Shown here in pieces: positions 1,901 to 6,365 of a stretch of 64,000 nt of DNA. The stretch comes from Candidatus Micrarchaeota archaeon. GTDB lineage: Archaea > Micrarchaeota > Micrarchaeia > Micrarchaeales > CABMGC01. The first letter of the stretch is position 1, and each line of letters opens with the position of its first letter. Below the pieces are notes generated by a model. That model saw nothing but the letters and a program-made list of their open reading frames with translations. It was not told the origin of the DNA and did no database searches. The position numbers were made by a program, and so were the translations under genes. The stretch spans positions 106,894 through 170,893 of the forward strand of contig JAJZOF010000020.1 in NCBI GenBank assembly GCA_021811535.1. Direction: 5' to 3'.

Positions 1901-2242
1901 ATGATAGGAAAAGGTAGCAGGAGCAGCAGAATAGCCACTCTTCCGGAGGTGCTGGGTATTTTGGAAGAGCGCAAGAAGGATGACAGCGAGCAGTTTGGAT
2001 ATGAGCTTGAGCTCTCTTATGAGTATGCAAAGCGCTTTTCATCTCTCGGGGATGAGAAGGGAAAGAAGATGAAGGATGAGCTTGTCGAGCTGGGGCTTAG
2101 CCAGAAGGCAGCGGCAAAGGTCATGGAGGTAATGCCTATAAATGTACTTCAGCTCAAGCAGGTCCTGGTTATGGAAAAGAAAACATACGAGGAAGATGAG
2201 CTTGCCAAGGTAATTGCCACAGTGGACAAGTACAGGCAGTGA
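1901..2242 (+). CDS. rpoF: RNA polymerase subunit Rpo4 (RpoF/Rpb4 family)
   Basis: 113 aa with the Rpb4-like pattern (YELELSYEYAKRFS...ELGLSQKAAAKVMEVMP). Sits in the conserved archaeal neighbourhood with L21e and DUF655. Confidence 0.75.
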   Translation: MIGKGSRSSRIATLPEVLGILEERKKDDSEQFGYELELSYEYAKRFSSLGDEKGKKMKDELVELGLSQKAAAKVMEVMPINVLQLKQVLVMEKKTYEEDELAKVIATVDKYRQ

Positions 2243-2257
2243 ATCGAAGCGGGGGAG

Positions 2258-2851
2258 ATGGTGGCGATGTTGGATAAAGTTCAGAAAAAGGAGGACCTGG
2301 AGGAATATGCAGTGGTGCTTGATTATCTTCCCACCGGGCGCTCGTATTCTGCCAAATCCGAGCCGATAGTGCAGCTTGTCGGTGAGAATAAGTTTACGCT
2401 TCTTGAGGCTGTGCCTAAGACCAACGAGATAAAGATAGGAGAGCGGGTATACATAGGCAAGGGAGAACGCGACAAGATAGCGATAATAAAAGGCAGGCTT
2501 AATTATAATGAGCTTAGCGAAGGAGCGAGAAACGAGCTTGTTATTGCGGTTTACGGAATAATAAAAAGCAACGAGGCCAGGTTTGTGGAAGTCTTCAACA
2601 GCGCATCGCCGCTTAATATAAGGATGCATGCGCTTGAGCTGCTTCCTGGTATAGGGAAGAGGCACCTGAGTGCGATCCTTGAGGCACGCGAAGATAAGAA
2701 ATTCGAGAGCTTTGAGGATATAACCAAGAGGGTTAGCCTGCTACAGGATCCGATAAAGCTTCTAGCTGACAGGGTAATAGAGGAGCTTAAAGGAGACAGC
2801 AGGTTCTATATGCTTACCAGACCGGCTGCTGCTCCGCATCAGAGATTCTGA
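2258..2851 (+). CDS. DUF655-type nucleic-acid-binding protein (OB fold plus helix-hairpin-helix)
   Basis: 197 aa. Motifs LDYLPTGR, FTLLEAVPK and HALELLPGIGKRH. Conserved partner of rpoF and rpl21e in archaea. Confidence 0.7.
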   Translation: MVAMLDKVQKKEDLEEYAVVLDYLPTGRSYSAKSEPIVQLVGENKFTLLEAVPKTNEIKIGERVYIGKGERDKIAIIKGRLNYNELSEGARNELVIAVYGIIKSNEARFVEVFNSASPLNIRMHALELLPGIGKRHLSAILEAREDKKFESFEDITKRVSLLQDPIKLLADRVIEELKGDSRFYMLTRPAAAPHQRF

Positions 2852-2909
2852 GAGTATAAGAACCTTGGTAAGGCATCGGCATACGTTTTGAGAGCCTGTG
2901 TTAGCTACG

Positions 2910-3212
2910 TTAATCCTTTGGTTTTGAGAAGATCTCAAGGTGGACCTGATTCACTACAAGAGTCCTCGACGTTGATTTTGAGACGTTAAGCTTTACCACG
3001 TACGCATTGCCGCGGCGCTCAAGCACTGTGGCAACCCTGCCTCTGTACCTAGGATGCGGTATATCCTTGAAATTGCCTTTTGGGACTATTACCACCTTGT
3101 CCCCCTCCTTGAAGCTCTTGAGCCGGCTTGATATGCTCAGCCTTGAGGGCTTGTGATGCCTGGAGAGGTGCCTCGTCCTGCCTACAAAAAGACCATGGGA
3201 TCGTTCAGTCAT
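2910..3212 (-). CDS. rpl21e: 50S ribosomal protein L21e
   Basis: Begins at internal Met43 (MTERSHGLFVGRTRHL...GDKVVIVPKG...HPRYRGRVATV). The longer ORF reaching 3338 would overlap the divergent TBP-like gene. Confidence 0.85.
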   Translation of the reverse strand: MTERSHGLFVGRTRHLSRHHKPSRLSISSRLKSFKEGDKVVIVPKGNFKDIPHPRYRGRVATVLERRGNAYVVKLNVSKSTSRTLVVNQVHLEIFSKPKD

Positions 3213-3299
3213 TAAGCTAACCTGCAGAATTATATCTTTCTTTTTAAACCCAATATATAAATACCTTTCATAATTATATTTAAATGTATTGGTGTATCC
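3213..3299. promoter_or_regulatory. AT-rich divergent promoter region (rpl21e <-> TBP-like gene)
   Basis: TATA-like elements: tttttaaa at 3241-3248, atatataaata at 3253-3263 and tatttaaat at 3277-3285. GGTG at 3291-3294 precedes ATG 3300. Confidence 0.5.
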
Positions 3300-3611
3300 A
3301 TGGTTGCCAAAAACAAGCCTAAAGGAAGCCTGCTGCATCCGACATTCAAGATAGAGAACATAGTCGCAAGCGCAGACCTTGGCGTTGAACTTGATCTTTA
3401 TAGCATAGCGAAGGCCTCACCTGATGTAGACTATGAGCCAGAGCAGTTTCCTGGAGCTATCTGCAAGATACACGAGCCTAAGACCGCGCTGCTTCTCTTC
3501 AAGAATGGGAAGATAATATGCACCGGGGCGAAGACAGAGGCGGATATAAGGAAGGCAATAGACCAGGTAGTGAAGATCGTTAAGGATTATATAATAACGA
3601 CGCAGGAATAG
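3300..3611 (+). CDS. TATA-box-binding-protein homologue with only one TBP repeat (103 aa)
   Basis: ENIVASADLGVELDLYSIA...YEPEQFPGAICKIHEPKTALLLFKNGKIICTGAKTEADIRKAI matches one canonical TBP repeat. The stop lies 5 nt before the convergent dedA stop. Confidence 0.8.
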   Translation: MVAKNKPKGSLLHPTFKIENIVASADLGVELDLYSIAKASPDVDYEPEQFPGAICKIHEPKTALLLFKNGKIICTGAKTEADIRKAIDQVVKIVKDYIITTQE

Positions 3612-3615
3612 ACGC

Positions 3616-4230
3616 TCATCCTGGATTCCTTATCTTTTTCATGCTGATGCGGTATATTGCGTAGAGTATTACGCATATGACCGCAATGTATGCTATCACA
3701 GAGTAGATGTTAGAAGAAGTTATTCCGTAAAACCCGAATGCTATAAGCGCAACATCCCATATGAATGACCCTGCCATCGAGTATGCTATAAACTTCTTTT
3801 TTGGCATCCTTGCGAAGCCTGCTGGGAAGTTTATCAGTCCCCTCACTACAGGAAGCATCCTTGAGATGAACACGGCAAAGCTGCCGTTTCTCTCAAACCA
3901 GGAATCGAATGCCTTGACATCCTTTTCCTTTATATGGAACGTGCCCAGGTGCTTGTATACTACATCCTTCTCGAAGAAATATGCTATATAATAATCGACC
4001 ATGAATCCAATCATGCCTGCAGCAAGGGCAACCACGAGGGCAGCATACGGATCCAGGAGGCCCTTGAAGGAGAAGTATCCTATCAGGGGAAGTATGACTT
4101 CGCTCGGTATAGGGATGGATGCGGACTCAAGCAGCATCAGCAAGAATATGGCATAATATCCATAAGACGTTATTAGCTGGCTTATTACGCTATAAGATCC
4201 CGCAAGTATGCTTACTGCTAATGGCAACAT
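3616..4230 (-). CDS. DedA-family (SNARE-associated) membrane protein
   Basis: GYYAIFLLMLLESASIPIPSEVILPLIGY is the DedA signature. Met22 is chosen as start to avoid a divergent overlap with pelota; the ORF is open to 4293. Confidence 0.8.
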   Translation of the reverse strand: MLPLAVSILAGSYSVISQLITSYGYYAIFLLMLLESASIPIPSEVILPLIGYFSFKGLLDPYAALVVALAAGMIGFMVDYYIAYFFEKDVVYKHLGTFHIKEKDVKAFDSWFERNGSFAVFISRMLPVVRGLINFPAGFARMPKKKFIAYSMAGSFIWDVALIAFGFYGITSSNIYSVIAYIAVICVILYAIYRISMKKIRNPG

Positions 4231-5306: not shown

Positions 5307-6365
5307 TCAGGTAAATGAGAATGCCTGCGTGCCTGGGCCGCATGCATCGGTCCATAGGACAGCGAGTTCGTATATGCCGCTGTTAAGAACCGCGTTTGCA
5401 GAGGCGTACTTTGTCGATTGCGTAGCTCCCCATGTTGAACCGGATGCGAACGGGCTTATCCATCCTGAACCCTTTGCCAGGAGAGGCCGGTAATAGGCCA
5501 TTATGGCAGACTGCCCTTCCACCTGCATAGTAACCGGAGTGGAAGGCTCGGGCACGTATATATCGGTGTACGCTATTGAGAGTGTGGAATTGTAAGGTGA
5601 ATTGCATGCAACATTGCTTGAGTTGAGGGAGGATGTGGTTATGGTGTATGATGTGGCGGGATGGTCAAGATAGTAGCTGCCCAGATTCGATGAGTTTGTC
5701 GTAAATGCATACCCGTTAGACCCGAATAGATAAGATGAGACCCAGTATCCGTTCTGCATTATCGTATAGTTTTCGGGAAGGGTGGGAACGAGACGTATCT
5801 CGCTGAATGCGGGGAGCTGCTCGCTTGCAGGACCATGCATGGCAATTACGCTAAATAGGCTTTCATTGCGCGAAGTGGCATATAGCGTGAAATATCCTGA
5901 GTAGTTTACCGGGGTGTAGGAGCATGCGCTTCTTTGCACGGAATTTATCCCAGAGTTGCAGTACTGGACTGACGCTTTGTAAGACCCGCTGACCGCAGCC
6001 CCCTGTGATTCCGCGGCGCTGAACTCGATCAGACATGATGTAGTGCCTCCTGGATATACCAGATTTGGTGAGCAGGCACCGATGCCCGTCTGGTTCTGGC
6101 TCGTCACTATGCTTATGTTTGTCACGTTGACAGGAATAGGATTGGAGTTCGAGAGGAGCAGCTGGACTGCGGAGTAGCCATACTGCTGGGACGTGTAAAG
6201 GTAGCCCTGCAGGCATCCCAGGTTGCCGAGAGAACCGCATTCGCTCTTCTGATATACGGAGGTTGCAGGAAATGCTATGGCAAATACGGCGGTAAGGAAG
6301 ATTGCGAGTAGTATGAAGAGGAAGCCGTAGGTTATAAGGAATTCCATGGCTGCCTGCGTCTTCAC
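5307..6365 (-). CDS. Class III signal peptide (archaeal type IV pilin-like) secreted protein
   Basis: N-terminus MKTQAAMEFLITYGFLFILLAIFL has Q(+1)...E(+5) followed by a hydrophobic helix. The remainder is S/T/N-rich with many N-x-S/T sequons. Confidence 0.7.
   Translation of the reverse strand: MKTQAAMEFLITYGFLFILLAIFLTAVFAIAFPATSVYQKSECGSLGNLGCLQGYLYTSQQYGYSAVQLLLSNSNPIPVNVTNISIVTSQNQTGIGACSPNLVYPGGTTSCLIEFSAAESQGAAVSGSYKASVQYCNSGINSVQRSACSYTPVNYSGYFTLYATSRNESLFSVIAMHGPASEQLPAFSEIRLVPTLPENYTIMQNGYWVSSYLFGSNGYAFTTNSSNLGSYYLDHPATSYTITTSSLNSSNVACNSPYNSTLSIAYTDIYVPEPSTPVTMQVEGQSAIMAYYRPLLAKGSGWISPFASGSTWGATQSTKYASANAVLNSGIYELAVLWTDACGPGTQAFSFT

Follow-up and report, generated by a model that had tools for sequence, protein, structure and literature searches.

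In this work, we describe a half-size TATA-binding protein (TBP) that a whole lineage of tiny DPANN archaea, the Micrarchaeales, carries at the chromosomal position where its relatives encode the normal two-lobed TBP. The protein contains a single lobe, is highly conserved, and most likely works as a symmetric homodimer, although dimerization is inferred and not shown. In some relatives, the repeat phylogeny suggests that the single repeat has been doubled again. Indeed, a close relative with the same gene order encodes a 196-aa TBP made of two copies of this repeat type (87-91% identical to each other).

A half-size TBP gene and its genomic context

The gene was identified in the 64-kb stretch of DNA analyzed here (hereafter, the window), at positions 3300-3611 of the plus strand. 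The open reading frame (ORF) starts with ATG, ends with TAG at 3609-3611, and encodes 103 aa. The main features of the locus are the following:

3300-3611 (+), coding sequence of the half-size TBP (103 aa plus TAG stop)
3300-3344 (+), N-terminal basic leader, residues 1-15 (MVAKNKPKGSLLHPT)
3345-3590 (+), the single TBP repeat, residues 16-97, carrying N20/V22 (strand S1), the stirrup Y45-E46-P47-E48-Q49-F50-P51-G52, F67 and T75
3213-3299 (no strand assigned), divergent intergenic promoter region of 87 nt shared with L21e, containing the A/T-rich boxes AATATATAAATACC (3252-3265) and ATTTAAAT (3278-3285, a perfect palindrome), and a Shine-Dalgarno-like GGTG (3291-3294)
2910-3212 (-), ribosomal protein L21e gene (PF01157), transcribed divergently
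3616-4230 (-), convergent DedA/VTT-domain membrane protein gene (PF09335)

The Pfam search gave a single PF00352 hit, which covers residues 16-97 against profile positions 2-85 of 85, with a score of 106 bits (cut-off 22.9) and an E value of 9.2e-31. The segments ENIVASADLG, YEPEQFPG, and ALLLFKNGKIICTGAKTEADIRKAI, proposed as TBP hallmarks in the first-pass annotation, are all present. When compared to solved structures, the protein matched both repeats of Pyrococcus woesei TBP about equally (73.7 and 76.7 bits), with roughly 50% identity to each. The stop codon of the convergent DedA/VTT gene (TCA on the plus strand) lies at 3616-3618, and the two genes are thus separated by 4 nt, instead of the 5 nt previously annotated. 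No second TBP-like stretch was found in the 64-kb window, either by tblastn at E <= 100 or by a profile search of all six frames. The first-pass reading of a genuine one-repeat TBP with no room for a second repeat, which would have to pair with itself to make a saddle, is supported by everything we could compute.

Then, we evaluated if the ORF could be a pseudogene or a truncated or frameshifted remnant of a two-repeat TBP gene, produced by assembly or sequencing error. Fragments of two-repeat TBPs at contig ends do mimic half-size proteins: among the protein clusters of our searches (designated by P numbers), P0217 (109 aa) lies on a 746-bp contig, P0152 (122 aa) runs into a second repeat, and P0173 is frameshifted, while P0133 carries a different N-terminus on the same core. 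However, a protein identical to that of the window is called on at least 27 contigs from NCBI, JGI, ENA, and Logan assemblies, up to 246 kb long, one of them being GCA_041825655.1, a Candidatus Micrarchaeota metagenome-assembled genome. Furthermore, a scan of one genome per species (GTDB representatives) found 320 relatives, and the best 80 loci, from 79 assemblies, encode a one-repeat protein 73-100% identical to the window protein. Among these loci, 74 are labeled Micrarchaeota, Micrarchaeia, Micrarchaeaceae, or (wrongly) Marsarchaeota, five only “uncultured archaeon” or “archaeon,” and one is clearly mislabeled Saccharimonadales. In all 80 loci, the TBP-like frame is closed by in-frame stops on both sides of a single repeat and is too short for two repeats; with the first ATG as start, the ORFs are 94-134 aa. 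About 100 clusters at 90% identity appeared in the protein search. A sequencing error is thus excluded, and the artifact hypothesis is refuted by the comparative data.

The window protein scored 97 bits at best against the ten NCBIfam TBP models, all of which have cut-offs of at least 181 bits. This probably explains why the NCBI records for the members of this family are named “hypothetical protein,” and genome surveys that rely on such names could miss it.

Conservation, synteny, and functional residues

To assess if the half-size gene is the ortholog of the main TBP gene, we compared its position among related genomes. L21e lies divergently upstream of the TBP gene in 72 of 72 related loci that contain both genes. 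The nearest two-repeat TBPs (174-196 aa), which belong to the other Micrarchaeota families Anstonellaceae and Bilamarchaeaceae, are 54-67% identical to the window protein. Every one whose locus was retrieved (P0002, P0008, P0277, P0281, and P0407) lies next to L21e, and wherever the contig extends far enough, L21e is followed by RpoF and DUF655, with KsgA after them in three of the four such loci. Two more divergent half-size forms, P0158 and P0201, about 63% identical to the window protein, occupy the same position in their own genomes. The half-size gene is therefore the positional ortholog of the ordinary TBP gene, and not an extra copy inserted elsewhere.

The half-size TBP is also the best-conserved gene of the locus. 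Across the 80 loci, its median amino acid identity to the window was 83%, against 69% for DUF655, 66% for MoxR, 62% for L21e, 54% for DedA, 52.5% for Pelota, 46% for KsgA, and 44% for RpoF, and TBP was the more conserved gene in every paired comparison. Synonymous sites are near saturation (median pS 0.73) while pN is 0.07, and for pairs with pS below 0.6 the dN/dS is about 0.07, indicating strong purifying selection.

In an alignment of 102 family members, 48 positions are at least 98% invariant, including N20, V22, F50, F67, T75, and the whole YEPEQFPG stirrup. N20, V22, F50, F67, and T75 align with yeast N69/V71/F99/F116/T124 and with N159/V161/F190/F207/T215, which are likely to be the S1 Asn and Val contacts, the paired DNA-kinking Phe, and the S5 Thr contact of the TBP-DNA structures. 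The stirrup is identical to the C-terminal, TFB-binding stirrup of P. woesei TBP, and its two glutamates, E46 and E48, correspond to the conserved TFB/TFIIB contacts C.L3.2 and C.L3.4 of Ravarani et al. 2020 (PMC7221094). Each subunit therefore has everything one lobe of TBP needs, including the TFB site. Conversely, the N-terminal leader varies in length and sequence within the family, but it is always Lys/Arg-rich and ends in L-(H/N)-P-x-F. It resembles the inter-repeat linker of the two-repeat ortholog P0387, ...KSAKRIKLHTEF.

An alternative explanation is that a canonical two-repeat TBP encoded elsewhere in the genome does the general job, and that the half-size protein is an accessory or regulatory factor, for example competing for TATA boxes or for TFB, or serving a subset of promoters, as proposed for the truncated haloarchaeal TbpA. 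Single-domain TBP proteins that coexist with full-length TBPs are indeed known in Halobacteria and Thermococcales (Brindefalk et al. 2013, PMC3597702). Moreover, the supplementary table of Golyshina et al. 2017 lists two proteins of the TBP arCOG (arCOG01764), whose nature could not be determined, in the closed genome of the micrarchaeon Mia14, while 13 of the 14 other (non-Micrarchaeota) DPANN genomes in that table have one. Supplementary tables for Ca. Micrarchaeum harzensis and for a 163-genome Micrarchaeota study contained no retrievable TBP entries. Synteny and conservation disfavor the accessory hypothesis, which we consider unlikely: the gene occupies the conserved position of the main TBP gene, and it is more conserved than the adjacent ribosomal protein gene across the best 80 loci, which is unusual for an accessory paralog. 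Among the top-scoring clusters of our searches, no two-repeat TBP lies on a contig of the same length as any half-size-bearing contig (up to 727 kb), but a canonical-type paralog could have been missed. As only 64 kb of this genome were scanned, a second TBP, full-length or half-size, is not excluded.

It is also possible, but still more doubtful, that the protein is one half of a heterodimer whose other half is a second, more divergent single-repeat TBP-domain protein encoded at another locus. The two arCOG01764 proteins of Mia14 would be compatible with this scenario, and a paralog with roughly 30-40% identity would have gone unseen among the best-scoring hits. Within this limit, the representative search found only three real half-size groups, namely the main family, P0158, and P0201; the latter two lie at the same L21e-divergent position in other lineages, so they are orthologs and not partners. 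The one assembly with two copies (JAJZKU01) is a mix of two strains, the two contigs being collinear at 86% nucleotide identity. In addition, the natural fused orthologs described below pair this repeat type with itself, and not with a divergent partner.

Fused orthologs and repeat history

Four protein clusters, P0385-P0388, are TBPs of 195-196 aa with two repeats, which are 84-91% identical to each other and 79-86% identical to the window protein. P0387 occurs on three independent contigs, and on the 138-kb contig it lies in the same gene order as the window: MoxR, RpoF, DUF655, L21e, TBP, one inserted cytidylyltransferase-family gene (PF01467), DedA, Pelota, a hypothetical gene, KsgA, and a lactamase-B gene. 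Its neighbor genes are as similar to those of the window as those of half-size-bearing genomes. For example, its L21e is 74% identical, against 58-73% in the six half-size genomes compared alongside it (55-77% across all 69 loci), whereas the genomes with older two-repeat TBPs are far more distant, with L21e at 35-42%. The two repeats of P0387 differ by a dS of 0.8 and a dN of 0.08-0.09 (dN/dS about 0.1). Thus, the fusion is neither an assembly artifact nor brand-new, and both halves remain under selection. This is the strongest available evidence that this repeat type can pair with itself to make a working TBP.

To investigate the history of the repeat, we compared the two repeats within and between proteins. 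In ordinary archaeal and eukaryotic TBPs the two repeats are about 30-45% identical, while in the Micrarchaeota-type two-repeat TBPs they are 55-91% identical. When first-with-first and second-with-second identity was compared to first-with-second identity between proteins, ordinary TBPs kept an excess of the former of 0.11-0.15 at 50-60% identity, while Micrarchaeota TBPs showed no excess below 60% identity, and none against ordinary TBPs. Furthermore, we built a neighbor-joining tree of the repeats with 100 bootstraps, in which outgroup first and second repeats fell in separate clades, all Micrarchaeota repeats fell in one clade (bootstrap 64), and both repeats of P0385-P0388 fell inside the half-size clade (bootstrap 74). 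The support for these key nodes is moderate because only 86 columns are available. The two repeats of several other proteins paired with each other (P0277 bootstrap 99, P0407 71, P0008 57). The inter-repeat dS ranged from 0.28 (P0281) through about 0.8 (P0387, P0002, and P0008) to saturation (P0277, still 89% identical in protein).

The most economical reading is a collapse to one repeat early in this group, inside Micrarchaeota, followed by several independent tandem re-duplications. The alternative is a complete homogenization of the two repeats, and gene conversion could contribute to the pattern, and we cannot separate it from re-duplication. Either way, the one-repeat state is secondary: although the first-pass annotation related it to the postulated ancestral state of TBP, it is not a surviving relic of the pre-duplication ancestor. 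Whether the repeat derives from the first or the second repeat of the ancestral TBP could not be decided, the mean identity being 39.6% to ordinary first repeats and 40.6% to second repeats.

Proposed function, predicted fold, and promoter region

Taken with moderate confidence, the best explanation is that the 103-aa protein is the general TBP of this Micrarchaeales archaeon, reduced to a single repeat. In the proposed mechanism, two identical subunits pair around a true two-fold axis to rebuild the ten-stranded saddle that ordinary TBPs make from two fused repeats, and each subunit contributes one pair of DNA-kinking phenylalanines (F50, F67), the minor-groove contacts (N20, V22, T75), and a TFB-competent stirrup (E46, E48). 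By analogy with characterized archaeal systems, the direction of transcription would be set by TFB reading the BRE next to the TATA box. Homodimerization, TATA binding, TFB recruitment, and the absence of any other TBP in the cell are inferred.

To test if the fold is compatible with this hypothesis, two copies of the window protein were joined head to tail, so that the natural C-terminal tail and N-terminal leader form a linker. Modeled with an alignment of 70 natural two-repeat TBPs, the fusion gave a pLDDT of 92.1 and a pTM of 0.85, and it superposed on complete TBP saddles (1MP9 of Sulfolobus acidocaldarius, 1PCZ and 1AIS of P. woesei, 2Z8U of Methanocaldococcus jannaschii, and eukaryotic TBP-DNA complexes) at TM 0.82-0.90 over about 190 columns. 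This shows compatibility and not assembly, since the chains were artificially linked and the alignment consists of real fused proteins; the single-sequence AlphaFold model of the same fusion was unusable (pLDDT 38).

Textbook TBP is a two-repeat protein, and its origin from a homodimeric one-repeat ancestor is a long-standing inference with no living example to test. Full-text literature searches found no report of a one-repeat TBP in Micrarchaeota or DPANN. Haloarchaeal TbpA is also a single TBP domain that clusters with genuine TBP repeats, but it coexists with full-length TBPs and is not essential for viability (PMC3597702), while the protein described here is the positional ortholog of the main TBP and is conserved across at least 79 species-level genome assemblies. 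The monopartite TBP-domain proteins of Thermococcales (about 91-97 aa) are highly diverged, with 11-38 identical residues to the TBP of the same genome, form their own cluster, and coexist with normal TBPs (PMC3597702), while the half-size protein clusters with the repeats of Micrarchaeota two-repeat TBPs. In contrast to the TBP-like domains of RNase HIII and DNA glycosylases, which are fused to a catalytic domain, it has no other domain.

In its broadest form, a hypothesis that we consider about as likely as not, Micrarchaeales would run all of their transcription with an exactly symmetric, homodimeric one-repeat TBP, the first natural example of the architecture postulated for the TBP ancestor. 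The repeat number at this locus would have toggled, with one collapse and then at least three independent tandem re-duplications of different ages, giving a natural time series of how a symmetric DNA-binding saddle becomes asymmetric after duplication. Promoter direction in these organisms would then depend entirely on BRE/TFB. Ten window ORFs of 300-380 aa were tested, and none is TFB.

Lastly, we examined the intergenic region shared with L21e. Across 73 related loci, the two A/T-rich boxes and a GTGAT/GTGGT motif recur at the same distances from the ATG, with the GGTG of the window lying 6-9 nt before it. The proximal box is often palindromic, as ATTTAAAT, TTTATAAA, or TATTTAAATA. Palindromic TATA boxes would suit a symmetric TBP, but archaeal TATA boxes tend to be near-palindromic in general, so this is consistent with the model and is not evidence for it; which box serves which of the two divergent genes was not resolved. 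A bacterial-type promoter and terminator scan was uninformative for an archaeon. In the window, TTAAAT, ATTTAA, and TTTAAA are the most enriched hexamers upstream of ORFs, at 7-8 of 72 ORFs against 0.5-0.6 expected.

Possible variation in repeat number

Evidence of a possible recent change in repeat number was found at one of the related loci (L018, positions 1-412, at the end of contig JAGWHJ010000032.1, MAG REEA76). This contig ends inside what reads as an in-frame tandem copy of the half-size TBP gene. More in detail, 99 nt are identical at an offset of 309 nt, and a new junction is formed in which ...NYILEP is directly followed by QEEKRTKGARKPVLNPKFKIENIV... This could be either a very recent re-duplication into a two-repeat TBP or a k-mer loop in the assembly.

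Three proteins of the TBP family, P0126 (272 aa), P0127 (376 aa), and P0142 (702 aa), have three or four PF00352-type repeats, although these may be either real or assembly artefacts. In P0126 the first repeat is duplicated (first, first, second), while P0127 is a head-to-tail doubling of a eukaryote-type TBP.

Organization of the TBP locus

Three regions of the window surrounding the half-size TBP gene presented features of interest:

3252-3269, conserved element in the L21e-TBP intergenic region
1901-3212, region compared for the order and orientation of L21e, RpoF, and DUF655
5307-6365 (-), ORF of 352 aa, conserved next to Pelota in related loci

The intergenic element, ATATAAATACCTTTC, is conserved almost letter for letter across many Micrarchaeota species, as seen at the equivalent position in the related loci L007-L086. 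This is more than a generic TATA box would require. The element could be a BRE-plus-TATA unit for L21e on the opposite strand (GAAAGG-TATTTATAT), or a regulatory site.

Then, we compared the gene order of window 1901-3212 with that of four loci from Micrarchaeota with two-repeat TBPs (L087, L089, L098, and L099). In the latter, L21e, RpoF, and DUF655 (followed by KsgA in three of the four loci) form one co-directional cluster divergent from TBP. In the half-size lineage, RpoF and DUF655 are inverted relative to L21e, and KsgA lies on the other side of TBP.

For the 352-aa ORF at 5307-6365 (-), no Pfam hit is recorded for its called orthologues. The protein has an N-terminal hydrophobic segment (MKTQAAMEFLITYGFLFILLAIFL...) resembling an archaeal class III (pilin-like) signal, followed by a Ser/Thr/Asn-rich body.

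Apparently chimeric or mislabelled assemblies and a mixed bin

Two other short proteins related to the window protein, P0133 (127 aa) and P0173 (111 aa), were also considered. The C-terminal 61 residues of P0133 (from FPGAICKIH onward) are identical to the window protein, but its N-terminal part is different and longer. P0173 matches the window family up to residue 73 and then changes frame. Both look like chimeric or frameshifted contigs of the same population.

Furthermore, a contig labelled “Candidatus Saccharimonadales bacterium” (locus L084, DATJMH010000022.1) carries a Micrarchaeota-type half-size TBP that is 77% identical to the window protein, which is probably due to a binning or labelling error in that MAG. 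Lastly, two contigs of one MAG (loci L046 and L057, both in assembly JAJZKU01, MAS1.bin53) carry the same TBP locus. The two contigs are collinear at 86% nt identity and have different coverage (111x and 57x), so the bin mixes two related populations.
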